From Octopus vulgaris (Eukaryota): a DNA stretch of 64,000 nt. This document shows positions 119 through 62,624 of the stretch, piece after piece. The position numbers were made by a program, and so were the translations under genes. A model generated the notes under the pieces. The model worked only from the letters and a program-made list of their open reading frames with translations. It had not been told where the DNA came from and made no database searches. Each line of letters starts with the position of its first letter. Positions within the stretch are counted from its first letter, which is position 1. The DNA lies in NCBI GenBank assembly GCA_951406725.2, contig OX597830.1:9858001-9922000 (forward strand), read 5' to 3'.

Positions 119-1202
119 CATACATAAATGCTGCTAATTGATTTCGTGTGCTGTCATCACTTGATGTCACTCCTAAAAGTGAGCAGCAGGAATGTATCTT
201 TTTATTATTCCACACATAATAGAGATTTTAAAAATCAAGCAATCCCTGTGCCCGAAGGTCTTTTTAAGTGAGCGAAGACTCCCTTTGTACGGGGACAACC
301 CTCCACTCTTTAAACTTATGCATTTGCCCAAGAAGAACTCGTCTATATCAGATGCAAAGGAAGTCATTGGGGTCACACCAAAGTCCTCCTTTTATCAGAA
401 GTCAAAACAAAGATTAGGGGTCTCTCCTTTCCAGTTGAATGACCGCTGACTCTGTTGAGTTCATCCACTTTTGGACAGGTTTCGTTTTTCGTCCTGAAGA
501 ATGACCGACATAAAACCCCCACCTTACCAAACAGGCTTTGTAGTAGTGTGAACTGTTTAGCAACCAACGACCCAACCGCGCAAAAGGTTTGACTGGGTCA
601 GTGTTACAAGTAGCATTAAGAGTGATCAGACATACATGGACTCATGCACACACATCATACACGCGTATGTTCAGAAAGCGCTCGCACGAGTGAAAGGTAG
701 CGCGAGAAAGGTCCAGAGAAGTTTTGATTTTTGTTACTATTAGAATTTCTTGAAGAGACTAAAAGAATGCGGCGGTTTTACAGCGATATATTTTTATTGT
801 CTATCTAGTGTCTCTGTGTTAATATTTGTGTAAAACTGTCTCTTCTCACCGTTTTATTTCTTACTGTTCATTTAATCGTGTTTTTTTCCTAAATCACTGA
901 TATTAAGAGGTAAAATAGAAGCTGTATGTATCTTCAGGCCAAAATTTTAAATAATAATTTCTAAATTATACGTCTTTGACGTTAAAACATTACAAGGTTG
1001 TTTTATTATTGGACAGTAAAGATTTTAGACAGCAAAGATAAGTCGTAAGTGAAATTGTAATAAACCTCACATTGATGGAATCTCTTGCTCTGGAAATTTC
1101 CTTCAAGCGAGAACTAATACAATTTGTGTTAACAGGGATCTATATGAGTTTGGTTTTCTTAATTCAAATCTACCTCATGGTCCGTTAATATCACTCATAC
1201 AG

Positions 1203-1575
1203 TAAGGTGGCGAACTGGCAGAAGTATTAGCACGCCGGGCGAAATTCTTAGCAGTATTTTGTCTGCCGTTACGTTCTGAGTTCAAATTCCGCCGAGGTCG
1301 ACTTTGCCTTTCATCCTTTCGGGGTCGATAAATTAAGTACCAATTACGCACTGGGGTCGATATAATCGACTTAATCCGTTTGTCTGTCCTTGTTTGTCCT
1401 CTCTGTGTTTAGCCCCTTGTGGGTAATAAAGAAATAGGTATTTCGTCTGTCGTTACGTTCTGAGTTCAAATTCCGCCGAGGTTCGACTTTGCTTTCATCC
1501 TTTCAGGGTCGATTAAATTAAGTACCACTTGCGTACTGGAGTCGATCTAATCTACTGCACTCTCCCCCAACATTT
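1203..1575 (+). mobile_element. SINE family A (tRNA-like head + Nin/Deu-like core), with internal tandem unit
   Basis: Head ggtggcgaactggcagaa...gagttcaaattcc (B-box-like) followed by gcctttcatcctttcggggtcgataaattaagtacc; the same sequence recurs many times in the window. Confidence 0.85.
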
Positions 1576-2460
1576 CTCTCTCAGAAACCAAACAATGTTC
1601 ACATTACATCGGACATGAGTTAAAAGATGTACAAAAGGTTTATCCACTTACACTCCAAAAAGCATTATGTACATCAGAGAAACACCTCTCACTACACTTA
1701 TCAAAATAAATGTGGAAGAGTTCTCGAAGACACTCATTTTAGACAAAGACATTACAGTTGAATTTATTAGCCGGAAAATCCTTTTACAGCGAATATCTAG
1801 ATTGCAAAAATTATTAAGCCAGCTTCACAAATCTCTTCGAATGGTTACTTTATTCGGCTAAACACCAATATAATGAAGAATACAGAAAGAAATGAACTGA
1901 AACTGGGCCGAAGATTAGGTCATTGGAAGGACATCTTTAAGTTTGACACACTTACGGTTCTCCTCACATATATATGATGGAGGTACTGACAAACATGTAA
2001 ATGGAGCTTACTTGTTAGACTACATCCAAAAGTAGGTCCTGCCACTGAGTGATGGGGAAAAATCTTCGCTTGGGGAGAGCATTAAACTCCTAATAGATTC
2101 GTAGAGGTACATCGTTACGTAGGCCGGATCTTCGCCATTCTAAAACCACCCATGTATACTCCTGGTTGCGTTTTCGCAACGCAAAAACTGCTCCGACTTG
2201 TTTGGACATGGCCTCACCGGGAAGCCCCTGATTGAGCACATGAAATGTTCAGTAGGTAGTCGACACTCATAGCTGACAGTTGCATACTGTCCTTCTCTTC
2301 CAGCTTTTGAAAGCTTACCATAACGTTTAATCTAAATACAGTGAAATTTTAAGACTTCAATTTTTTATGGGCATATATGGGTTAAACTTAGATGCTTTCG
2401 TTCTCCAGTTCTGAAGAAAGTCGGTTTCTTAGATATGCACCTACACAGAGACACACATGT

Positions 2461-2503
<43 letters not shown>

Positions 2504-3460
2504 GAGAGAGAGAGAGAGAGAGAGACAAGAATCAAAGAAAGTAGGAGAGGGAGATAGTAACACCGAGAAAAAGAAACGTGCTGGGCTGTCCCTTTAATCA
2601 TTCGTCCCCAAGACCAAACTGGTATTTTCTTTATCTATCCGAAAGCTATTGCACTTTAAGTATTCTAACCTCAGATGAGTCATTACACCAGACTTCGTCC
2701 TTATAGGCCAATAAACATATACTATTATTAGAAATAAGTCAGTAGGAAATGGGTGCAAACATTTATATAAATAAAGCGGAAGTGAATTATTTTAGAGGAT
2801 TCAATTTCGTTCTTATAAATTCTAGTGATAAATCTCGATGAAAAAATGGTTTTGTCTTTGGTTCTTCTTTAATAAAACAAGACGCAACATTATATTACCC
2901 CAGATTAAGCGAAACAATCACAACAATTAAAGAACATAGTTTTGAACTTCGTCGAATTCTTGCATTGTTGGAACTGTAAGTACGTCGGACAAAATGATTT
3001 TCTCTGTTTGCCTCGGCTCTTCAACGTCAACTGCAATCTTTTGCCCTTCAGTGTTTGATAAAATATAGGACAAGTCAAGTGACTTTATGATGTGTGGGTT
3101 TATCTCTAATAGTTGTTATTACGTCCGGGACAGATCTGATAAGTAACCGAGTCTATTGTGCAGAAACAATCGCCTTGCTTTGACGAATGTAGAGCAATGA
3201 ATCTTCTTTTCTTTGTTGGTAGTGGCGAAGGAAGCTGCATGGTAGATGCAGTTGAAAGGTTTGAAAACAGATTTTCCCATCAAGCTAGCACTTCATTAAA
3301 TTCTTCAAGCAACACTTGAGAAGGACGTTGGTAATAGAGAAGGCGTTACTCCCCACCATAAAAGTTTACAATGTTTTATGGACGAGAAAGACAATATTGG
3401 CATAGCTACATGTGTTCTCCCTAAGAGTTTGTGTGAGTTGACGAGAGATTTAAAAGCATG

Positions 3461-3845
3461 TAAGGCGGCGAGCTGGCAGAAACGTTAGCACGCCGGGCGA
3501 AATGCTTAGCGATTTATTAGTCTATAAATTAAGTACCAGTTACACACTGGGGTCGATGTAATCGACTTAATCCGTTTGTCTGTCCTTGTTTGTCCTCTCT
3601 GTATTTAGCCCCTTGTGGGTAGTAAAGAAATAGGAAATAGATATTTCGTCTGCCGCTACGTTCAGAGTTCAAATTCCGCCGAGGTTGACTTTGCCTTTCA
3701 TCCTTTCGGGGTTGAGTAAATAAGTACCAGTTACGCACCAGGGAAGATATAATCAACTTAATCTGTTTGTCTTTGTTTGTCGCCTCTGAATGTAGCCCCT
3801 TGTAGGCAGCAAAGAAATAGGTATTTCGTCTGCCGTTACGTTCTT
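3461..3845 (+). mobile_element. SINE family A, internally repeated
   Basis: taaggcggcgagctggcagaaacgttagcacgccgggcg head plus repeated core units. Confidence 0.85.
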
Positions 3846-3854
3846 GTCTAATCT

Positions 3855-4272
3855 AGCACAAGGACCGAAATTTTGGGGCGAAGGGGGCCAGTAGATTAGA
3901 TCGACCCCAGTACGCAACTGGTACTTAATTTATCGACCCAGAAAGGATCAAAGGCAACGTAGATCTCGCGGGATTTGAACTCAGAACGTAAAGACAGACG
4001 AAATACCGCTAAGTATTTCGCTCGGCCTGCTATCGTTTTTGCTAGCTCGCCCCCTTAATTATTTTTTGCTCTAGGCACAAGACCCGAAATTTGGGGGAGA
4101 GGGACAGTCCATTAGATCGACCCCAGTACACAACTGGTATTTAATTTATCGATCTCGAAATGATGAAATACAAAGCCGACCTCGGCAAAATTTGAACTCA
4201 GAACGTAAAGACAGACGAAATACTGCTAAGCATTTCGCCTGGCGTGCTAATGTTTCTGCCAGCTCACCGCCT
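3855..4272 (-). mobile_element. Two tandem SINE family A copies with an alternative 3' tail
   Basis: Reverse-complement family A core twice; tail on + reads ctaggcacaagacccgaaatttgggg. Confidence 0.8.
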
Positions 4273-4717
4273 TAATATCTCAACAATTCTAAACAAGGAA
4301 TAATGGACTTTATAAAATAACGAATTTAATGACCAAAGCGTTTGACTGCATAAAACACACAAGATGACGTACATTCAGCCAAATATATTTCCAAGCAATC
4401 CGTCATAAAATAATTTTAAGTATGGGCAGCAATCCACACGAACTCTTCAGAGCAAGGATATACATTATACTATATGCCACAAAATCTTTATGACCATAAG
4501 ATTGAAATTTACGGATGAAAAACGTTCATGGGAACCTTCGACAGATTATGGGTGATACAAACACACACACACACACAAACATACACACTCACACCAATAC
4601 ATCGTTTTTCGTTTTCCGTCTTTAATCCACATATCTGCACTTTCTATAGGCTCCCGTTTCAGTGTTTTCGCATTTCGTCCATTATTCAAATTTTTTGGTT
4701 CGTTATGATATGTGGTT

Positions 4718-4773
4718 TGCGCCTGAGGATATGGTTCAGTATTTCTTAACGCATGAAACTATTAGCAGCGCAT
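4718..4773 (+). ncRNA. Degenerate type I hammerhead ribozyme motif
   Basis: CTGAGGA (4723-4729), stem II atggtt/aacgcat, GAAAC TA TTA, weak stem I gc/gc; a short tail then (TA)n follows. Confidence 0.45.
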
Positions 4774-4794
4774 AAATACATGTATTGTGACCTT

Positions 4795-4885
<91 letters not shown>

Positions 4886-4892
<7 letters not shown>

Positions 4893-5080
4893 CACGTGAT
4901 CACGTGACTGACCAGTCCATCTGATGTAGTTACACATCGCTGGCTGGTCACAATGCGTTCGCATTGTTTTAGCCTTCGAATGACGCCACCCTGCTGGCTA
5001 AGCGAGCAGGCCAACTGAAGAAAGAGTGGGAGAAAGAGTGGTGAAAGAGTACAGCAGGGATCACCAACCCCTGCCGGAAT
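4886..5080 (-). mobile_element. SINE family C, 3' fragment
   Basis: Reverse complement of the 3' half of the element at 12955-13285 (gcaggggttggtgatccctgctgtactc...cggtcacgtgatcacgtga). Confidence 0.8.
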
Positions 5081-5087
5081 ATACATA

Positions 5088-5120
<33 letters not shown>

Positions 5121-5180
5121 ACAGAGAGAGAAATAGAAAGAGAGAGAGGTAGAGAGAAACAGACAGACAGATCGACAGAC

Positions 5181-5242
<62 letters not shown>

Positions 5243-5772
5243 GTTTGTGTTAAATCTCAACAAAAACATCCTAAGCCCGAAACAACCCCTTTTGCTGAGG
5301 AATTTATTATATTGGGTGGGTTTAAGCCGACTGATTAGTCATACTGTCTTAAATATATTTATATGTTCTTTGAAAGTTTATTGACACAACAGATCCTTTT
5401 ACACGGCTTCTATGATGAAACTTCCTGTCTCTGCTGTCATCATTGCCGAAAGTTGTCGGCCGACATTTTAATAGAGAAGTGAATCTCTGAAATCCGGAGT
5501 ATGGAAATCTATTTATATTACTGTTGTTATATTTCTCTTTCTTTTTTCTATATTCCGTCATCTTTGGTATTCCGGAAGGTATTTCATGGTTGTATATATG
5601 GCACTTGTTTTCGTCAATTTAATGTATATTTCATGTGCCCCTGAAGAAAATAAATAAAACGTCCGAGGTCAACTTTGACTTTCGCCCTTCCGGGGTCGAA
5701 TAATTACTGAAGTTGATGTAAACAACTAACAGCCAGACATTAAAATTCTTGCCTTGTGCCAAAATTTAAACA

Positions 5773-5837
<65 letters not shown>

Positions 5838-5844
5838 CATCATA

Positions 5845-6232
5845 AGCGTAGGACTGGCTGTGTGGTAAGTAGCTTGCTTACCAACCACATGGTTCCAGGT
5901 TCAGTCCCACAGCGTGGCACCTTGGGCGAGTGTCTTCTACTATAGCCTTGGGCCGACCAAAGCATTGTGAGTGGATTTGGTAGACGGAAACTGAAAGAAG
6001 TCCGTCGTATATATGTATATATATGTATGTGTGTATGTTTGTGTGTCTGTGTTTGCCCCCACCCCCTCAACGTCACTTGACAACCGATGCTGGTGTGGTT
6101 ACGTCCCCGTAACTTAGCGTTTCGGCAAAAGAGACCGATAGAATAAGTAGGCTTACAAAGAATAAGTTCTGGTGTCGATTTGTTCGACTAAAGGCGGTGC
6201 TCAAATGACTGAAACAAGTAAAAGAGTAAAAG

Positions 6233-6236
<4 letters not shown>
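5845..6236 (+). mobile_element. SINE family B, near full length
   Basis: A/B-box-like tggctgtgtggtaag...ggttcagtccc, CORE-like ccttgggcgagtgtct, internal microsatellite, tail gactgaaacaagtaaaagagtaaaagag. Confidence 0.9.
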
Positions 6237-6297
<61 letters not shown>

Positions 6298-6348
6298 CAT
6301 TATTATTATCATTATTATTATTATTTTTATTATTATTATTATTATTAA

Positions 6349-6382
<34 letters not shown>

Positions 6383-6736
6383 GCTTTGTCTTATAAGAGG
6401 TCTTCTAGCGTTCAACCAGAAACCTCATGTAACAGCCAATTGGGACGTTTTATTATGAGTGCTATCTATGATGAGCAATAATTTTTAAAGGAGGCCAGAA
6501 TCTAGGAACGAAGATTCTCTTAAATTTGCAATAATTCAGTTTTGATTGAGTTTTAAGAGAAGCAGCTGGTTTCAAGTTGACAATGTGTCACTTGGGTTTT
6601 TTATTTTTGCCACAATATCTGTACTATTGGCCTGTAGAGCACCGTTCAGAACGGTGATGTCTTTATTTTCTACAATTTTGCTAAGCTTGTGTTCCCACAA
6701 GTTCTTCTCATACAGGTATCGAGATTTACAGTATAT

Positions 6737-6968
6737 ATTTCTTTATTACCCACAAGGGGCTAAACATAGAGGGGACAAACTAGGACAGACAAAGGGATAA
6801 AGTCGATTACATCGATCCCAGTGCGAAACTGGTACTTTATTTATCGACCACGAAAGGATGAAAGGCAAAGTCGACCTCGGCGGAATTTGAACTCAGAACG
6901 TAACGACAGACGAAATACAGCAAAGAATATCGCCCGGCGTGCTAACGAGTCTGCCAGCTCGCCGCCTT
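6737..6968 (-). mobile_element. SINE family A monomer with target-site duplication
   Basis: Flanked by gagatttacagtata (6721-6735) and gagacttacagtata (6971-6985). Confidence 0.9.
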
Positions 6969-8092
6969 TAGAGACTTACAGTATAGGAGCAAGTTTATGT
7001 ACAGGCCTAGTCTATCAGAGCGAATAATGCATTCATTTGAGGCTGGCATAGAAATAGCTTCAATAGTTTCCCTGTCTGCACCACAAAAGCAGCAAGCTTT
7101 TATGAAAAAAGGTCATGTTTAATCAATCGATGTGTACCCTTGGTCCCACCATAACACATGCCATTATAGGGACAACTCGAGTGTTCATGTCTCTCCGTTT
7201 ACAATATCCATTTATCCCTATATAAATATCATTATAACAGCTCTTCCTACTTTCACAGATATGCCGGCATCTGGTGAAATAAAAAATACTATTTTATAAT
7301 TTTTTTTGTAAATCTAAGTTTCTGAAAGAAAGTGTAAATTGTATGTTACTCTTGTATTACTCTGTATGTTTCAGACATTGGTTGCAACTCTCTGCCATCT
7401 GCTTCCTGTTCTTTGAAAGATTGGTAAAACTGGTAAGAATTTCATATTTGTATGACTAACTATTTAATTAAGTTTAAGTACCGATTACTAACTGATGTAT
7501 GTATTTTACATTTTTTCATAACTGCATCCCCGATACTTTCTATTACCCCCCCCCACACATACACACATACACACACATCTACTATGCATATATCCGTATT
7601 TACCACATATATTGTCTTTGACATGCCATTCAAATTCACATAGAAAATGTTTAATAAAATCAAACACACACCACACAAAAATTATACATGTATGTATTGT
7701 GTTGTCTGTGTGTGTGAATGTGTGTGTGTGTGTGTGTGTAGGTGTGTGTGTGTGTAAGAATGTCCTCTCATCATCATCCTCACGATACGTCCATTTTCGT
7801 ATGCTGGTTTCAATTAGACAGGTCGTTAAGAATCGAGCGCACCTAACTCTGGAGCATTTTCGTATCATATAAGCCAAGCACGAGATTGTAATGTATGCAA
7901 GGAAGACTTAAGGGCTCCATCTCCCCTTTTTTATACGCCTTTACTCAGTTATCTGAGTCCTGGGCAGGTAACTTCCACTGCTGCTGATGGAGTCTTTGTC
8001 TTACGTGTACGCAACGTTTTTGGTTCACTTCCTACAGCGAAATAACTTGTATATTTGTAGCCTTTGTGGCCGTTGTGTCAAACTATATATAC

Positions 8093-8163
<71 letters not shown>

Positions 8164-8381
8164 TATATCCGTATATATACGCATACATGCATGTATATAA
8201 TTATATATATATATATGTACATATATCTATCTATTTGTCTACCCATCTCTCTCTGTGAATATGCGTATGTATTAACATACATAGATATGTGTACGCGTAT
8301 TGTATTGTATATATGGCAGCTGGTGTTTTAGAGATCATTGCCAAAATCTATCAACTTCTGTAGCTCTTTATATACTCATTA

Positions 8382-8416
<35 letters not shown>

Positions 8417-9184
8417 TGTCGGTGCCTGTGTGTGTATGTATGTATAAATGAGCATAAAATATATTTTGTGGTAGAAATTATATAATAATCACAGCAAAAA
8501 TTAAAATATAATTACGACATAAAGTAAATGGTTAAACTTTCTGATTATAAAATAAGCTGTAAATTTAACTAAACGCTCTGCAATCTGGAATCCAAGGCAT
8601 GAAATAGAAATACAATGAACCATTTATGTGGAAAGAAAAACATAATGAAATTAAAAGAAGTAAAGATTAAGAACAGTATGGAGAACGGTAAGACTCGTAA
8701 ATGTTAAGAATAATAAATCTTAAATCCACCGAAACGCCCCTCAAAAGCAGTGCATTGTAAAAATTGGAAACTCTAAATATAAATAGGAACGACGGAATAT
8801 ATCCAGTTTGAAACGGCTTTGACCTTGGTGAATCGATTAATAGTCATCATTGATCAAAGGACATAAAAAGAAGTCATACGACTGAGTCTCTTCAGTAGCA
8901 GACGACATTGTCAGACGCTACAAATGTCGCATTTCCTACGTTGCTCTCTGAGATAAGATGAAGTATTGGGATTTTGTTTAAAATATTGGGATCAAAGCTA
9001 AAGCCTGCTTCGTAGACACGGGTTTCAATTGAACGGGGTACAAGCACAGGCATGACTATATTGTTAAAAAGCTCACTTAGCAACTACGTGAATGCGGGTT
9101 CATTCCCATTGCGTGTAAATAGCCTCCGACCCATGAGTGAAATTGGTAAACGGAAACTATGCGGAATCCTGTCGTATATGTATA

Positions 9185-14327: not shown

Positions 14328-14357
14328 ATATATATATATATATATATATTCGTTTAT

Positions 14358-14541
14358 AGGGAGAATTCAGAAAAAAACAAAAGATGAAGACAGGTGGTGT
14401 AGACAACAAACAGATGTATTAGTATAAGGCTCGGGAAGTGAGAAAAGTATCTAGCGTTTCGAGTCTACGCTCTTCCATAGAAAGGAACACAGAAACAAGG
14501 AGAGAAGATAAAGAATGTGTAGTGGCTAGCGATCTATCGCG
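14358..14541 (-). mobile_element. HHR-bearing short element, subfamily 2 (decayed core CTATGGA)
   Basis: Homologous to 36609-36755; minus strand cttt CTATGGA a gagc gtag actc GAAAC GCT agat at about 14449-14484. Confidence 0.7.
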
Positions 14542-16663: not shown

Positions 16664-16711
16664 ATGTGTGCTTATATATAAGCATATATATAAATATTAT
16701 ACACCCATATA

Positions 16712-16772
<61 letters not shown>

Positions 16773-16777
<5 letters not shown>

Positions 16778-17128
16778 ATCCAAACATGAAAACACAACAA
16801 CGCGACGACGTGGAACAGGTATAGTGTTATTGGACGCTCAGGAAAGAAGGAAAGCAGGAGAGTTTAACGTTTCGAGTGGAGCTCTTCGTCAGAAACAGAG
16901 GAAAAAGAAAGCGACACAAGTAGAAAAGTGGAAGAAGAAGAAGAAAGGTAAAAAGAGGACGAGGAGAAGTGGAAGAGTCACGGACATTTTTTTTGACTTC
17001 CAATCACGATTACAGTGTCGTACTCCGGATGAATAGTAAAAGTAATCCGTAGGTTAGCCGAGGCAGTCAGAAGGCTGGGGTCCGTGTGAGCGTGCGGTAT
17101 ATAAAGTTCATCCAAACATGAAAACACA
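16773..17128 (-). mobile_element. HHR-bearing short element, subfamily 1, with 24-nt terminal direct repeat (retrozyme/PLE pLTR-like)
   Basis: agttaatccaaacatgaaaacaca (16773-16796) repeated as agttcatccaaacatgaaaacaca (17105-17128); homologous to 40749-40941; flanked by microsatellites. Confidence 0.8.
16862..16896 (-). ncRNA. Minimal type I hammerhead ribozyme
   Basis: Minus strand gttt CTGACGA a gag ctcca ctc GAAAC GTT aaac: stem I gttt/aaac, stem II gag/ctc, loopless palindromic stem III AACGTT. Confidence 0.8.
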
Positions 17129-17180
17129 TACATACATACATACATACATACATACATACATACATACATACACCCATATA

Positions 17181-17211
<31 letters not shown>

Positions 17212-17214
<3 letters not shown>

Positions 17215-17462
17215 CGCAGGAGTGGCTGTGTGGTAAGTAGCTCGTAACCAACCACATGGTTGCGGGTTCAGTCCCACTGCGTGGCATCTGAGCAGTATGG
17301 CTAGCATAGCCCGGGCCGACCAATGCCTTGGTGGATTTGGTAGACGGAAACTGAAAGAAGCCTGTCGTATATATGTATATATATGTATGTGTGTGTGTGT
17401 TTGTGTCTGTGTTTGTTCCCCTAGCATTGCTTGACAACCGATGCTGGTGTGTTTGCGTCCCC
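17212..17462 (+). mobile_element. SINE family B, 3'-truncated
   Basis: ggcgcaggagtggctgtgtggtaagtagc head; breaks off at gcgtcccc. Confidence 0.85.
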
Positions 17463-17941
17463 GAATGCATTGCATCGTAAAACAGAAACAGCTGTAAGGT
17501 AACGAGGTCTAATACATAATTTCTTGTCCCCTTGTCATATATATATATATATACGTATATGTATATGTATATATGCGTAGGTATTTGTGCGTGAGTATGT
17601 GTGTGCGTGCATGTGTGTAGGGTAACATTTAGTAAAGTACTCTATAATTTTAAAGAGATCGTTTTATTGCATTTAGTTTGAAAGTGTTTCACAACAAACA
17701 AATCATTATGCCAATCACAATGAACAATCTAGTTCTCCCTTTCCCTGGCTGGTTGTTTACTTATGTTACTGGTTCTGTTTGATCGTCTCCTGCCATATAG
17801 ACCAAAAGTGGTTACCTGCGTTGATACAAACACTATGAACAGAAAAGTAGTTTAGTTTGCTAAAGATTGAATATAAATGTACATTTTACCGTTATACATC
17901 CAACTATCCATATATAAATTTCATACATACATACATACATA

Positions 17942-18068: not shown

Positions 18069-18585
18069 AGATAGATAGATAGATAGATAGATTGATAGGT
18101 AGATAGATTGATATAGATATGTATATATGCATAGACATATGCATATGTGTGTGTGCATGTATGTATTATCGTTATAATAAAGCATTTTTATCATTTAATA
18201 AATCACTAATTGCACCATATCGTTTTCTCTGTGCGTCTCTATCTATGGGTATCTACACACACACACACACACACACGCACACACACACACACATATATAT
18301 ATATATTTAGTTAAACATAATGAGGCATAGATATAGATATATAGATAGACTTATAGATTGATTGAGCGATAGATATCGATAAATAGTTAGACACGCACAG
18401 AGAAAATGATTTGGTGCAATTAGTGATTTATTAAATGAGAAAAATGCTTTATTATAACGATAAAACACACATACACATACATATACATATGTATATGCAT
18501 ATATATATATATATTTACACAAGAATAGTCTCAATCTGACAGGCATGCAGATTGCCGGATATATACATACACACACACACACACA

Positions 18586-20856: not shown

Positions 20857-21770
20857 TTATTTCTCTAGTGCCCATAGGGTGCCAAACATAGAGGGGACAC
20901 ACAAGGAAAGACAAAGAGATTAAGTCGATTACATCGACCCCAGTGCGTAACTGGTACTTGTTTAATCGACACCGAAATGATGAAAGGCAAAGTTGACCTC
21001 GGCGGAATTCGAACTCAGAACGGAACGGCAGACGAAATATCGCTAAACATTTCGCCTGGCATACTAACGATTCTGCCAGCTCACCGCCTTGACCATAAAG
21101 ACAAACGAGATACCACTAAGCATTTCGCCCAGTTTTTATATTTATTTACAGCTCACAAGGGGCTACACCCAGAGGAGAAAAACAAGTACAGACAAACGGG
21201 TTAACTCGATTATATCGAAGCCAGTGCGTAACTGGTACCTATTTAATCGACCCCGAAAGGATGAAAGGCAAAGTCAACCTCGGCGGAATTTTAACTCAGA
21301 ACGTAGCGGCAAACGAAATACCTATTTCTTTAATACCCACAAGGGGCAAAACACAGAGAGGTAGTAACCCACAAGGGGCTAAACACAGAGGGGACAAACA
21401 AGGACAGACAAATGGATTAAGTCGATTACATCGACCCCAGTGCGTAACTGGTACTTAATTTATCGACCCCGAAAGGATGAAAGGCAAAGTCGACCTCGGC
21501 GGAATTTGAACTCAGAACGTAGCGGCAGACGAAATACCTATTTCTTTACTACCCACAAGGGGCTAAACACAGAGGGGACAAACAAAGACAGACAAACGGA
21601 TTAAGTCGATTACGTCGACCCCAGTGCGTAACTGGTACTTAATTTATTGTCCCCGAAAGGATGAAAGGCAAAGTCGACCTCGGTGGAATTTGAACTCACA
21701 ACATAAGGACAGACGAAATACCGCTAAGCATTTCGCTCGGCGTGCTAACGGTTCTGGCAGCTCGCCGCTT
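20857..21770 (-). mobile_element. Tandem array of SINE family A units
   Basis: Repeated gattaagtcgattacatcgaccccagtgcgtaactggtac...gatgaaaggcaaagtcgacctcggcggaatttgaactcagaacg units. Confidence 0.9.
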
Positions 21771-22480
21771 TCATCCATCTTAAACATTGCTAATCCGGCG
21801 AGATGGCATAATCGTTAGCGCGTCGGACGAAAAGTTCAGTGGAATTTCTTCTGATTCATTACATTGTGGTTTCAAGTGCGGCAGGGTCAACTTTGCTTTT
21901 CATTCTTTCGGCTTGAACGAAATAAGTATCATTCTAGCACTGAGGTCGATGTAATTGATACCCCTTCCGGACCAAATTTCAGTCCTTGAGCATGTAGGTG
22001 AAAGGTTATCATACAGAACCAATGCAGCGTTAGCGTTTCGGACAAAACGTTTTCGGCTCTTTACGTTCTGAGTTCAAATGCCGACGGGGTTATCTCTGCA
22101 TTTCATCCATCTGAGATCAGTAAAATAAAGTACTTGTCAAGTACTGGGCTTGATGTAATCAATTAACCCCATCCTACTCACTACAATTGCTGGCCTTGTG
22201 TCAAAATTTGAAAGTGTATGCAAACATGACCGGAGTGAGAATAAGATTGATAATTTGGTAACTGACTGATTGGGACATCTCAGAGCCGACATGGGGTACT
22301 AACCGGGTGGGGTGCACATAGGTTTTATGTTTCAGTAACACTTCTATCAAATCTCTCACACGGTTCAATAATCAATGAACGAATCATATTGAGAATAAAG
22401 TAAAAAAAAAACTTGAAAAAAAAACCTTTCAACTCCTTAAAGTAGAACATGTGGCGAAAAGAACCTTCTGCAGAAGTACA

Positions 22481-26671: not shown

Positions 26672-27128
26672 TGTATATAAAGACGATAAGAAAATGGAGC
26701 AATAAATAGCAATGAGAAGCGGATCTTTGGTGTTATAAAGCCATTATTTTATAAATTAAGTAAGACGAGAGTATGATAGAGGGAGCTTACAGCTGTTTCC
26801 GTGTATCTGATTTATTGAACTTTGAACCTAACTAAAATGTAAGACTATCGAATTATTGAACATTTTCTTTTCCCTGTTTTTTTCCCTTAGACTTTCTTTC
26901 TCTTTATTCTCTTTTTTTTTTATCTTGTGCCTTTTTCGTTCTGATGTTGTCTATCAGTTGCAACGAGGTAAATACATATTCACCGCAGCCTGATCTACGG
27001 AAACAGCTGTAAGCTTACTCTTGAATACTCTCATCTTAACTAATTAATTAAATAATGGCATTATAACACCAACGATCCTCTTCTCATTGTTATTTATTTT
27101 CTCCATTTTCTTATCGTCTTTATACACA
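26672..27128. mobile_element. Fold-back element with degenerate HHR (26938-27014, +)
   Basis: Inverted arms about 26672-26810 / 26990-27128; gtt CTGATGT tgtctatcagttgc...gcagcctgatctacg GAAAC AGCT GTA agc. Confidence 0.75.
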
Positions 27129-28486: not shown

Positions 28487-28732
28487 TCTATATCTGGATC
28501 ATGAACGGGTTTCCCTGAAACTTCTATCCACGCTGCGTTTCGAAAAATTGTAGTTACATAAATATGAAAGAGAAAGTGTTTTCAAATCGTTTATTACGTT
28601 AACCCTTCTTCTATATCTGGATCATGAACGGGTTTCCCTGAAACTTCTATCCACGCTGCGTTTCGAAAAATTGTAGTTACATAAATATGAAAGAGAAAGT
28701 GTTTTCAAATCGTTTATTACGTTAACCCTTCT
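28487..28732. repeat. Perfect 123-bp tandem duplication
   Basis: tctatatctggatcatgaacggg...acgttaacccttct at 28487-28609 and 28610-28732. Confidence 0.95.
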
Positions 28733-36489: not shown

Positions 36490-36608
36490 CATGTATGTAT
36501 GTATGTATGTATGTATATATGTATGTATGTACGTATGTATGTATGTATGCATGTATGTATGTATGTATGTATGTATGTATGTATGTATGTATGCATGTAT
36601 GTATGTAT

Positions 36609-36755
36609 AGGGAGAATTCACAAAAATAACAAAAGACGAAGTCCGGTGGTGTTGACAACAAACAAATGTATTAGTATAACGCTCGAGAAGTGAAAATGTC
36701 TTTAACGTTTCGAGCCTACGCTCTTCCACAGAAAGGAACACAGAAAGAAATGTGT
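36609..36755 (-). mobile_element. HHR-bearing short element, subfamily 2, nested in the microsatellite of a family B SINE
   Basis: Minus strand cttt CTGTGGA a gagc gtag gctc GAAAC GTT aaag at 36700-36735; family B halves at about 36215-36380 and 36786-36940. Confidence 0.75.
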
Positions 36756-37289: not shown

Positions 37290-37990
37290 TGGTTTGAAAT
37301 TTTGGTACATGGCAGACAATTCTAAGGGAGAATTATCGATTACCACCACCTCCGTGCTCAACTACTACTTAATGTTATCGACCCCGAAAGGATAAAAGGC
37401 AGAGAAAGTCGACCTCACTCGAGGGAATTTGAACTCAAAACGCAGAGAGCTGGAAGAAATACCTATTTCTTTACTACACACACGGGGCTAAACACAGAGA
37501 GGACAAACAATGACAGACAAACAGATTAAGTCGATTATATCGACCCCAGTACATAACTGGTACTTATTTAATCGACTCCGAAAGGACGAGAGGCAAAGTC
37601 GACCTCGGCGGAATTTGAACTCAGAATGTAACGGCAGACGAAATACTTATTTCTTTAATACCCACAAGGGGCTAAACATAGAGGGGACAAACAAGGATAG
37701 ACATAGGTATTAAGTCGATTATATCGACCCCAGTGGGTAGCTGATACTTAATTTATCGACCCCGAAAGGATGAAAGGCAAAGTCGACCTCGGCGGAATTT
37801 GAACTCACAACGTAACGGCAGACGAAATACCGCTGTATTGTGTCTGTCTTCTGAGTTCAAATTCTGCCAACGTCGACTTGGTTTTTCATCCTTTCAGAGT
37901 GAATGAAATAAGTACCAGATACGACTTAATCCCTTTGTCTGTCCTTGTTTGTTCCCTCTATGTTTAGCCCCTTGTGGGCAATAAAGGAAT
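37290..37990 (-). mobile_element. SINE family A array, followed by a + strand partial copy
   Basis: Family A core repeated three times on minus, then inverted partial from about 37840. Confidence 0.8.
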
Positions 37991-38294
37991 AAATATATCT
38001 GTATAATGTATGTATGTACGTACCTTATCTATCTACCTACCTACCTGTCTATGTATCTGTCTAGGCTTTTCTTTCCATGAATAAACCTAATCTTTTTATA
38101 TTGACATTTCTGTAATACACGATCCCTATAGATCGGCTTTTTTTTTCCACGATCCCTTTTGATCGAAATTCGATCCACTTTTTTTTTTCTCTTCTTCCCC
38201 AAAATAAAAGCTCTACTTTGTATTTTGTCCCTTCTATGTTCAGGCTTGTGTGGCCAATAACGAAACATATATATCTATCTACCTATCATTATGC

Positions 38295-40255: not shown

Positions 40256-40259
<4 letters not shown>

Positions 40260-40596
40260 CTTATATAAGGCAAAGAAAAATTCCAATAAATATGCCGAAA
40301 ATAGACAAATAGTCAATCATTATAATATGCGTCTGAAACAACGATAGAAATTTCGCGTATTGGTGAGTTAATCGAATTTTCCTTCAGCGATAAATACGTA
40401 AGACTTAAATGAAATACTTACTTACCCTCACTAATTCTTGCCTTTTTCCTTACGTATTTATCGCTGACGAAAGTTCCTAGCTCCGAACTACGGTATTAAC
40501 GGATTTTAGAAACTCTATCGGATTGTTATAATGCTTATTGACTATTTGTCCATTTTCGGCATGTTTGGCATTTTCTTTCCTTATTTTATAAGTTAT
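40256..40596. mobile_element. Fold-back element with HHR-like remnants in both arms
   Basis: Arms about 40256-40402 / 40449-40596; cttacgtatttatcgCTGACGA aagttcc...ggatttt a GAAA on +, CTGAAGG...GAAA on -. Confidence 0.6.
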
Positions 40597-40748: not shown

Positions 40749-40936
40749 TTCTGTGACCGCGTGTGTATCGTTGGCGATTTTCTTCTCCGTCTTCCCTTCC
40801 TTGAACCTTTCTTTTTCTATGTTTCTGACGAAGAGCTCTGTGCTCGAAACGTTAAATCCTCCTACTTTCCTTTCCTGAGCGTCCAATAGCACTATACTTC
40901 TTCCACGTCCTCGCTTTTCTTTGTTCATGTTTGGAT

Positions 40937-40941
<5 letters not shown>
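40749..40941 (+). mobile_element. HHR-bearing short element, subfamily 1, between (TA)n tracts
   Basis: Ends catgtttggattaact then (AT)n, the same terminus as the 16773 copy. Confidence 0.8.
40821..40857 (+). ncRNA. Minimal type I hammerhead ribozyme
   Basis: gttt CTGACGA a gagc tctgt gctc GAAAC GTT aaat. Confidence 0.8.
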
Positions 40942-41000
<59 letters not shown>

Positions 41001-41056
41001 CATATCATACATATACATATATCAAATATAAATTAAAAATAGAATACAAAGGATAT

Positions 41057-41149
41057 CGCGGTACACGTGTTTCAAGCTTTATAAGCAATCCGTTATTACA
41101 TCAGTATACTATTGATATAAAAGATGGTTTAAAGCTTTCTTCAGCCGTA
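41057..41149 (-). ncRNA. Type I hammerhead ribozyme inside a fold-back element (41026-41230)
   Basis: Minus strand tacgg CTGAAGA aagcttta ... taaagctt GAAAC ACGT GTA ccgcg; 8-bp stem II; palindromic stem III. Confidence 0.85.
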
Positions 41150-41260
41150 AGCATTGTTAGTTCAAAGATTGTTTATAAAGCTTGAAACACGTGTACCGCG
41201 ATATCCTTTGTATTCTGTTTTTAATTTATATATATATCTATATATGTATATATACATATA

Positions 41261-45559: not shown

Positions 45560-46495
45560 CTAAATGATAAACTTCTGGAAAGTTTTACAGATTTTTACAG
45601 TTCCAGTGATGGATTGGATCTTTAGTCTTCGGATTATCTTTCTCCTCTCTTATTTTGAGAAGCCTAATTTCTCAAGATTGGTATTTAGGCAGTGTGTTAC
45701 ATTTCCCAGGGCCCTAATAATTACAGGTATAAAACTGAACTTGTAATCTGAATAGAGTAACTGAAGATTTCTCAATAATTCAGCATAGGTGTTCTCTTTT
45801 TTATTGATCTTCAGCTTTATGTTAACATTCGCTGGGCAGCTAATTTCCACAACTGTGCACAGTTTCTCTTCTCTATCCCAAATGCTTATATCAAGTCTGT
45901 TGTGCTTACACTTTATTGAGGTCTTCACTGGGACATTCCACCAGTGTCCCTTTTTATTATGAGCGGCTATGACTTCTACCATATCGTTGGTTCTTATTTT
46001 TTTTTTGTCCTCAGGATTATCCTTCTGACGGATTTCATAATAGAGGGTCCTAGCTACAACATCATGTCTCATCGGTAGATAAACCGTGATGACATTTTCG
46101 GACAACTGCTTATGATGTTGGTGATATCTTCAGTGTGAACTCCGCAAAGTCTGCATCGGTTGTCACATTTTCCCGCTTTTGCTGCATCTCTATCCCTTTT
46201 GTGCATCAGATACTTGGTTGATATTTCCTGTTCCTGGATTGCAAACGTTTATCCTTCAGATTGGGAGGTAGTAATCCGTCCATTGGTCCATGATAATCTG
46301 CTTTGATGATCGATGTTACTATCATCACGGAGCTTTCTAGTAACATCGATCATCAAAGCAGATTACTATCATCACGGAGCTTTCTAGTAACATATCCATG
46401 CAGAGTCTTCTGCTCATATAGGCCCATTCTTTCATCTGATGATACCTCGCAGTATAGTCGTGCGACTTTCGGGCATGTGTTCTAGGTTGACGTTA
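45560..46495 (-). pseudogene. R4/Dong-like non-LTR retrotransposon 3' fragment (CCHC + restriction-like endonuclease)
   Basis: AIQEQEISTKYL, CRLCGVHTEDITNIISSCP (CCHC-like), RHDVVARTLY, HNRLDISIWDREEKLCTVVEISCP, KKENTYAEL; frameshifted. Confidence 0.85.
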
Positions 46496-49554: not shown

Positions 49555-50160
49555 TAGCTATGGTCACCAATCAGTGTAAAATTAATCACAGAACTTGAGG
49601 CAATCCAGCGAAGCTACACGAAGAAGATAACCTCTATGCAGCATATAAGCTACTGGGAAAGACTCAAGAGATTAAGACTCTATTCCTTAGAGCGTAAGCG
49701 GGAAAGATATGCCATAATATACATCTGGAAGATCGTGGAAAGACTTGCCCAAAACTTTGGCATCGAGAGTTACACAAATACTAGAACTGGGCGCCACTGC
49801 GTGATGCCAAGGACTCCGAATTTGCCATCAAGATGTAGGAAAAGATTCTGCGATAGCCTGGGCTTCAGAGGTCCACAACTCTTCAATATCCTCCCGAAGG
49901 AACTGAGAGACTTGCATGGGGTGGATGCGGATGTCTTTAAAATAAAGCTGGATTCTTCCTGTCAGGTATCCCAGATGAACCAACTTCACGGCAGGAGGTG
50001 CAGATGAGGGCAGCTGCATCGAACTCTCTCATGCACCAAATGGCAATTGCTAAAAAGCATTCGTGAAGTAAAATCATGTAGCAACACCGAATGGTGGTGC
50101 CCCAGCATGGCCACAACTCGTGAGCTGAAACTAGAAGAAAATGAAAAATGAAAATAAAAA
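49555..50160 (+). pseudogene. CR1-group LINE 3' fragment (RT C-terminus and 3' UTR)
   Basis: ISYWERLKRLRLYSLERKRERYAIIYIWKI...FRGPQLFNILPKELR...FKIKLD, typical of the CR1/L2-group C-terminus. Confidence 0.85.
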
Positions 50161-55020: not shown

Positions 55021-55111
55021 CCTACGCTGATGAGAAAAGAAGTTGGGTAAGACATAATTATCTAATTCTTATGCTTTCCTAAAACTTAATTTCGAAACGT
55101 ACGTCCGTGGG
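55021..55111 (+). ncRNA. Type I hammerhead ribozyme, canonical core
   Basis: cctacg CTGATGA gaaa...tttc GAAAC GTAC GTC cgtggg; predicted cleavage after 55105; element about 54961-55300 between (TA)n tracts. Confidence 0.9.
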
Positions 55112-55295
55112 TGACTTAAAATTGTATGATAGATTGCCGTCATTTCATTCTCTCTTACCTGTCTGTGTTTGCCTTTCAAGTGCTGTGTTTTTACTGAGAT
55201 CTCCCTTTTAATAGAAAGAATAGCTATAACTCTTTGACTGCTATTTCTAAATTCGGTGTGTGGTGAGGCAATTCGTTGCTAAACCCTTAATTACT

Positions 55296-56265: not shown

Positions 56266-57215
<950 letters not shown>

Positions 57216-59672: not shown

Positions 59673-59925
59673 AAAATATTTAGATTCAGAGGAATATGGT
59701 ACTTAAGTTGATGCACCAGAATATAGTATGGTACTATCCATACAATTTCAAAATAAGGTGATTTAAATCAAAATAAGCAACAAGGATATCCAGAGGTTAT
59801 GCATAGTTGTAACTCTATGATGTTGTTGGTAAAACATGTTCTTTGCCTATCTCCATATCCTCTTGGAGATTTTAGGTAAAATTATAATAATGTGTTCTTC
59901 TAATTTAATTAAACTCTACGTCTTT

Positions 59926-60005
59926 GTGCAGCTGAAGATTGCTCTACATTTTAAATTGATATAATGTTCAATTAAATGGAATCGCATGAAACGATCGTAC
60001 TGCAT
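59926..60005 (+). ncRNA. Type I hammerhead ribozyme inside a fold-back element (59767-60037)
   Basis: gtgcag CTGAAGA ttgc...gcat GAAAC GATC GTA ctgcat; predicted cleavage after 59999. Confidence 0.85.
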
Positions 60006-60046
60006 TGCCTCTGGATATCCTTGTTGCTTATTTTGATGATGATATA

Positions 60047-60159: not shown

Positions 60160-60162
<3 letters not shown>

Positions 60163-60587
60163 TAAAGCCAGTTCAGTGTTGCGCAGTGGAAGGCATCTTC
60201 ACATCTATAGATTATCATATCGTATCTCTATATATCAATGGCCGATCTATATCCTGGTTGGCAAATCAGCTGTTTCCTTTCTCTAGTTATTCTTTACGTC
60301 GTACATATCGAGCGGGGTACTGAGAGCAGAAGAGAGATACAGAGAATGTGAATGTCAGACGTGCTTATTAAAATTATTAGCGGGAATCAGTATATACACA
60401 CGCACGCACGTATATAGTAAAAGAAATAATAATAGCGATATGTACGACGTAAAGAATAACTAGAGAAAGGAAACAGCTGATTTGCCAACCAAGATATAGA
60501 TCGGCCATTGATATATAGAGATACGATATGATAATCCATTGATGTAAAGTTGCCTTCCACTGCATCAAGCCTGGACTGGCTTTAATT
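60160..60587. repeat. Fold-back element with about 150-bp inverted arms
   Basis: Arms 60160-60310 / 60436-60587, near-perfect; adjacent to (TA)n. Confidence 0.9.
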
Positions 60588-61470: not shown

Positions 61471-61530
61471 ACCGTAGACTAGTTTCGCCATGAACGATTT
61501 TACTTACGTCCGTGGCTCTTCAGTACGACC
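61471..61530 (-). ncRNA. Type I hammerhead ribozyme, canonical core
   Basis: Minus strand gtcgta CTGAAGA gccacggacg taagtaaaat cgttcatggc GAAAC TA GTC tacggt. Confidence 0.9.
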
Positions 61531-62478: not shown

Positions 62479-62526
<48 letters not shown>

Positions 62527-62530
<4 letters not shown>

Positions 62531-62624
62531 CCTACGGACGTACGTTTCGAGATCAAGTTTTAGGAGAGCATAAGAATTAGAAAATTCTACTTTAGGAGAG
62601 CATAAGAATTAGAAAATTCTAACG

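Follow-up and report, generated by a model that had tools for sequence, protein, structure and literature searches.

Layout of the insertion and its target site

The window analysed here comprises 64,000 nucleotides of Octopus vulgaris DNA (assembly GCA_951406725.2, contig OX597830.1, positions 9,858,001 to 9,922,000) and carries at 16773-17128 a non-coding insertion of 356 bases in minus-strand orientation. A direct repeat, a target-site duplication (TSD) around the insert, (TA)n at its 3′ end and a minimal hammerhead motif can be read directly from the DNA. The features of the locus and of a second, related copy in the window are listed below.

16699..16743, no strand: left TSD copy, 45 bp identical to the right copy
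16715..16772, no strand: (TA)n microsatellite abutting the 3′ end of the element, putative nick and priming site (from sequence)
16773..16796, minus strand: 3′-terminal 24 nt of the element, ending in GGATTAACT (repeat search and shuffles)
16773..16911, minus strand: pseudo-LTR-like 3′ module common to an abundant family and the 40749-40941 copy (alignment, contig depth)
16862..16896, minus strand: predicted minimal type I hammerhead (descriptor scan)
16912..17097, minus strand: low-copy non-coding 5′ part, pyrimidine-rich to 16985, then mixed (depth 350-5300 in four runs)
17098..17104, no strand: short, degenerate stretch of TA separating the rest of the unit from the upstream 24-mer (sequence, contig of run X1)
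17105..17128, minus strand: upstream copy of the 3′-terminal 24 nt, a 5′-truncated pseudo-LTR (repeat search and shuffles)
17129..17167, no strand: about 11 units of (TACA)n at the 5′ junction, with a unit that matches the start of the TSD (from sequence)
17168..17212, no strand: right TSD copy, 45 bp identical to the left copy
40749..40941, plus strand: another copy of the 3′ module, flanked by (TA)n runs, in which stem II keeps all 4 bp and the sequence upstream is a different one (alignment, descriptor scan)

The last 24 bases of the insert are duplicated at its start (16773-16796 and 17105-17128), at an offset of exactly 332 and with one mismatch. If the preceding TA bases are counted, the direct repeat extends to 31 nt with two mismatches. 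This redundancy had been pointed out in an earlier note on this DNA and was confirmed by matching it anew and by shuffles. When the 356-mer was dinucleotide-shuffled 60 times, the closest 24-nt direct repeat in each shuffle differed at 6-10 positions. In the whole window the 24-mer is matched three times at up to three mismatches, the third site being 40918-40941 on the minus strand, and the shuffle mean was 0 (n = 100). The redundancy is not due to chance. With respect to the 332-nt unit, the insert amounts to 1.07 units and holds a single hammerhead at the locus; within the window, no array of the unit was found.

A TSD, which the earlier note had not mentioned, brackets the whole insert (16699-16743 and 17168-17212). 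Its 45 identical bases are made up of 17 unique ones and 28 of TA repeat, and it encloses the upstream 24-mer, the unit and the (TACA)11 run. In the window, the 16-mer core TACACCCATATACTCA is present at 16700 and 17169 and nowhere else, with (TA)n after each occurrence; 100 shuffles gave 0 matches. At the 40749 copy and three other nearby repeat copies tested, a TSD was detectable in none (0/4), and pure (TA)n would hide it. The 3′ end is fixed, lacks poly(A) and lies before (AT)n: both long copies in the window (2/2) end at the same base, the one at 16773 with a TSD. The earlier statement that the 40749-40941 copy shares the terminal base was correct, the last one or two bases being ambiguous with the TA run.

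Five frames over the element gave no Pfam match. The longest non-repeat stop-free frame across it encodes 85 amino acids without a Pfam match, so the open reading frame of an autonomous Penelope-like element (PLE), with RT and GIY-YIG, is not present. Likewise, no Pfam match to RT or GIY-YIG was obtained in the window for 91 of at least 131 stop-free segments (5 over the element and 86 elsewhere; about 45 that lie in SINE-like repeats or overlap others were left out). The 91 segments gave three sub-cutoff matches, none of them in the element. No credible protein relatives of the 5′ part were found: phmmer with one 49-aa frame returned five matches, and the four that were checked are internally repetitive proteins unrelated to PLEs. 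A scan of metagenomes gave six loci, which we treated as chance; four match the 23-24-nt pattern only, two have no BLAST match, and none carries (TA)n or repeats of the window. The viral contig scan returned 0 matches, phage blastn none, and no tRNA gene was found in the window.

The hammerhead motif

Hammerheads were searched by a relaxed descriptor scan on both strands of the window, which returned three motifs, in the 16773 element, in the 40749 copy and at 61477-61523. In the element, the motif consists of a helix I of 4 bp, CUGACGA (16892-16886), an extra A (16885), stem II and GAAA. A palindromic ACGU replaces helix III, and the cut is predicted between 16866 and 16865. The distance from the predicted cut to the 3′ end is 93 nt in the element and 88 nt in the 40749 copy. 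Stem II has 3 bp in the element, owing to a mismatch in the fourth pair, and 4 bp in most relatives; base pairing at 16877 is present in relatives at 78-92% of depth. The hammerhead core is kept, with no variant at 16879-16905 among 40 of 46 rows.

The motif departs from a canonical type I hammerhead in its helix I of 4 bp rather than about 6 bp, in the absence of helix III and in the absence of an Rfam match. The Rfam search for hammerheads gave 0 matches at the gathering score and none among 51 matches at E up to 10, most of which are microsatellite hairpins. Four features of metazoan PLE hammerheads are matched: helix I is short, an additional base precedes stem II, G10.1 pairs with C11.1, and 15.2-16.2 is palindromic. 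From its sequence, the motif is predicted to be a minimal PLE hammerhead and not of the canonical retrozyme type. Minimal PLE hammerheads are described in PMC4209133 as not cleaving as monomers, with dimers and trimers cutting weakly in vitro.

At the cleavage base 16866, A accounts for 1-9% of the depth of relatives (GUA instead of GUU), most of it in run X1. These GUA variants possibly form a subfamily with different activity. The motif at 61477-61523 (minus strand) resembles a type I hammerhead and is unrelated to the element. Its helix I measures 7 bp, loop II is long and loop III is a palindromic CUAG; no second copy of it was seen in the window.

An abundant 3′ module and a rare 5′ part

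Relatives of the element were taken from four of ten listed public runs (X1, X3, X4 and X5), using contigs only, mapped at 80% likeness. The word shares of these runs are 0.09-0.14, that of X1 being 0.14, and each contributed 3,538-8,937 records. The runs listed included no RNA data set, which has no bearing on expression. In all four runs, the mean summed contig depth was far higher over 16809-16904 (0.5-2.3 million) than over 16989-17084 (350-4,100). The resulting ratios of 3′ module to 5′ part are 488 for X1, 1443 for X4, 1450 for X3 and 670 for X5, where summed depth is not copy number. Because of this contrast, the 3′ module has the appearance of a pseudo-LTR that is very abundant, the 5′ part that of a spacer that is rare. 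The 5′ part, which is covered by contigs in 4/4 runs, is likely a captured spacer, and may be host DNA, going by its low depth and the adjacent TA remnant.

Among the matches listed, the loose end found most often behind 16911 is, in 4/4 runs, similar to what lies upstream in the 40749 copy, so the main family departs from the element there. Across the predicted cut site (bins 16857-16880) there is no fall in depth, and both copies in the window span it. The 40749-40941 copy is 84% identical to the element over 141 columns, which represent the 3′ ~140 nt only and not the whole 332-nt unit, and ends in GGATTAACT before (AT)n. The earlier note had taken the 332 nt as one hammerhead monomer. The hammerhead motif is indeed there, of minimal type by the descriptor scan, but the unit is a composite of an abundant 3′ module and a far rarer 5′ part.

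One record of X1 joins 17103 to 16773 with three more bases of TA run, and represents a head-to-tail junction with a longer, pure TA spacer. It is a single record in 1/4 runs among the joints listed; contigs collinear with the junction in the window were not counted as joints. As X1 holds only 0.14 of the sampled words, this contig probably derives from another locus. The TA run at 17098-17104 is likely the remnant of an older (TA)n target, and at the junction it looks like the scar of a DNA insertion.

Other repeats in the window

A second family, 88% alike, is found at 14355-14498 and 36606-36749 (minus strand). It has a stem II and GAAACG as in the hammerhead of the element, its CUGANGA box is altered (CUAUGGA and CUGUGGA), and it ends at TA or TACA repeats. 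It may represent pseudo-LTRs in which the ribozyme is a variant or no longer active. A third short family occurs at 62526-62624 (minus strand) and 55056-55116 (plus strand), with CGAAACGT near its end. Its copy at 62526 ends in TAACT before (AT)n like the 16773 element and holds an internal 32-nt tandem duplication.

Fold-back inserts with inverted repeats, unrelated to each other and often located at microsatellites, lie at 18129-18498, 26672-27128, 40259-40593, 41002-41253, 59767-60037 and 60160-60587. They may be MITEs or inverted pseudo-LTRs; the insert at 40259-40593 has a CUGACGA...GAAA motif at 40464. One SINE-like family occurs at 17212-17465 and about 12 other places. Another occurs at 21137-22200, 37336-38006 and about 20 others, with tandem units of 184-217 nt. 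Both, including the repeat at 17212, as well as the richness in microsatellites, resemble what we take to be typical octopus SINEs and octopus DNA. Three stop-free stretches, 45653-46129 (minus strand), 49558-50004 and 56269-56595, may be decayed C-terminal fragments of LINEs (restriction-like endonuclease, CR1/L2-like, RTE-like); none of the three had a Pfam match.

Origin of the terminal redundancy

We consider it probable, at roughly 60%, that the element is a non-autonomous PLE derivative which entered (TA)n when an uncut, linear RNA spanning two pseudo-LTR ends was copied by target-primed reverse transcription. Of four features by which such a derivative may be recognised, three are found: a minimal hammerhead in a terminal repeat, a partial tandem, and a fixed 3′ end at (TA)n with a TSD. 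We infer the enzyme, the donor and the form of the template as follows. At the donor locus, one pseudo-LTR copy would have entered a TA run ~190 nt upstream of a further copy, with 17098-17104 as what remains of the run. The RT/GIY-YIG protein encoded by an autonomous PLE would then act in trans and bind a read-through transcript. With the plus strand nicked in (TA)n, the cDNA would start at the fixed internal site of the family, 93 nt downstream of the predicted ribozyme cut. Synthesis would cross the uncut hammerhead and the spacer and stop 24 nt into the upstream pseudo-LTR. Finally, the 5′ end would be joined by ACACA/TACAC microhomology, the (TACA)n run being made at that point or later by slippage, and a TSD of 17-45 bp would result.

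Reverse transcription through a tandem junction had been one of two routes proposed in the earlier note. It is supported by the TSD, which encloses the 24-mer together with the unit, and by the X1 contig (1/4 runs), which joins the 5′ end to the 3′ end across a TA run. Several properties of known PLEs are in line with this route. According to PMC8969392, full-length PLE insertions carry a 5′-truncated tandem copy, and partial tandems are the normal form of PLE insertion. The capture of non-coding DNA between pseudo-LTRs with a TSD, and the partial tandems of PLEs, are described in PMC3846280 and PMC8969392 in terms that do not involve circles. For the Poseidon element of anole, PMC11167929 reports that reverse transcription starts internally at AT-rich targets and that uncut RNA is the main substrate in vitro. 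PMC8557442 describes a preference for (TA)n in Naiad PLEs, discusses one in Neptune, and also describes microsatellite targeting and non-autonomous PLEs with head-to-tail copies. Against our reading, the window segments scanned yielded no autonomous partner, and the TSD exceeds the 8-10 bp given for Adineta elements in PMC3846280.

The two parts of the insert might also have arrived separately. The upstream 24-mer would then be an independent, strongly truncated member of the abundant family whose insertion hit the TA run at the long copy's 5′ end, and the redundancy would be uninformative on the template. The 3′ module is extremely abundant, a TA run, the target of the family, is located exactly at the junction, and a TSD inside TA repeat would be invisible, all of which would fit such an event. 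We nevertheless regard it as unlikely. The outer TSD encloses both parts, and in the X1 contig, probably from another locus, a 3′ end is found at the same junction. Additionally, the upstream 24-mer is closer to the end of its own element (1 difference) than to that of the 40749 copy (4 differences), a comparison to which the majority end type of the family did not belong. Linear, nested and circular origins cannot be told apart by the one mismatch between the 24-mers.

Still less probable is a circular template, the other route of the earlier note. Here, a dimeric donor would be cut by paired minimal hammerheads, the 332-nt monomer would be ligated, and RT would run 1.07 turns around the circle. 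The unit is within the 150-450 bp of the repeats of animal retrozymes, whose TSDs are described as longer than 4 bp (PMC7229834), the relatives keep the hammerhead core, and a circle route to PLE tandems was proposed in 2014 (PMC4209133). In size and composition, the unit agrees with a retrozyme (332 nt, with 150-450 nt expected; non-coding; GC below 50%). Three other hallmarks were not found, namely at least two complete units with a hammerhead at the locus or in the window, a canonical hammerhead, and a stable, self-paired circle. The 332-nt circle folded at -40.4 kcal/mol with 46% of bases paired, and 94 of 100 shuffles folded as well or better (z = +1.6), unlike the circles of retrozymes, which PMC7229834 describes as stable and highly self-paired. 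For the linear 332-nt unit, this was the case for 96 of 100 shuffles (z = +1.6). In self-cofolding of two hammerhead motifs, a dimeric hammerhead was not the lowest-energy fold, but such folding does not model the core and its outcome carries no weight here. The insert has only one hammerhead, of a minimal type with low activity in vitro, no 332-nt array is found in the window, and the junction TA run differs in length between the two examples. For the active PLE Poseidon of anole, the RNA-seq data described in PMC11167929 contain no reads with a start or an end at the hammerhead site. Reverse transcription once round a circle thus finds no positive support in a minimal hammerhead, a unit that is not self-paired and a TA remnant at the junction. 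A circle cut from the donor that we propose for the linear RNA would leave identical DNA, and the genomic sequence alone does not separate the two.

A more specific version of the circle is a long shot. The long subfamily might move via a 332-nt circle from dimeric cleavage, with a PLE RT running just past one turn and a telomerase-like TACA stutter on the target at the 5′ junction. If true, it would represent a natural bridge from the PLE pseudo-LTR to the retrozyme and a direct test of the circle model of 2014.

It is very improbable that the redundancy stems from local DNA duplication, slippage or an assembly artefact among microsatellites. Both ends of the insert do lie in microsatellites, and small local duplications occur elsewhere in the window (28487-28732 and 62559-62621). 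However, two nested duplications, the TSD outside and the 24-mer inside, are impossible from one tandem duplication, and the 24-mer starts exactly at the 3′ end of the family. The presence of the 5′ part in contigs of 4/4 runs argues against an artefact of assembly.

Comparison with known systems

The layout of a partial tandem with a captured spacer has already been published. In the cephalopod and octopus literature on hammerheads, we found no description of the family of this element, which may, however, already be catalogued in the O. vulgaris repeat library (Zenodo) or the supplement to its paper. The O. vulgaris repeat annotation, as presented in PMC13282606, lists recently active Penelope families and makes no mention of hammerheads. 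For the giant squid, 235 Rfam hammerhead loci are reported in PMC6962438.

Non-autonomous Chlamys elements such as MRC1 (Craig et al. 2021, PMC8557442) are similar in their pseudo-LTRs and head-to-tail copies, and in belonging to PLE clades that favour microsatellites. In contrast to the element described here, they are green-algal, and most Chlamys and all Naiad elements are described there as lacking canonical hammerheads. With animal non-LTR retrozymes (Cervera and de la Peña 2020, PMC7229834; Li, Clavereau and Pollet 2026, 10.64898/2026.07.22.740005), the element shares a non-coding unit of ~330 nt with low GC, a type I hammerhead, a long TSD and, likely, mobilisation by PLEs. It differs from them by a minimal instead of a canonical hammerhead, by 1.07 units instead of two or more and by the lack of a stable self-paired fold. 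According to the 2026 preprint, animal retrozymes derive from PLE pseudo-LTRs and solo monomers are widespread.

The closest parallels are found among PLEs themselves. The pseudo-LTRs with minimal hammerheads described by Cervera and de la Peña (2014, PMC4209133) likewise have a minimal type I motif, an extra base before stem II, a short helix I and a palindromic core, and occur as thousands of dispersed single motifs per genome. The element differs in the absence of an RT/GIY-YIG open reading frame and in a stem II of 3-4 bp, compared to 7-8 bp in the Schistosoma families. The captures by solo pseudo-LTRs and the partial tandems described by Arkhipova et al. (2013, PMC3846280) and in PMC8969392 have the same order of truncated pseudo-LTR, spacer and pseudo-LTR within one TSD, and also a 5′ junction with microhomology. 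Compared to these, the element is much smaller (356 nt), its TSD measures 17-45 bp instead of 8-10 bp, its 5′ junction carries (TACA)n, and the spacer appears to have been amplified as a minor subfamily. With a very abundant family of minimal hammerheads and a long subfamily that is rare, circular and linear read-through origins of PLE tandems could be tested against each other. The element has probably been carried along by PLEs as an ordinary passenger. It shows known PLE behaviour in neat miniature, and its TSD, set in a microsatellite target, is unusually legible.
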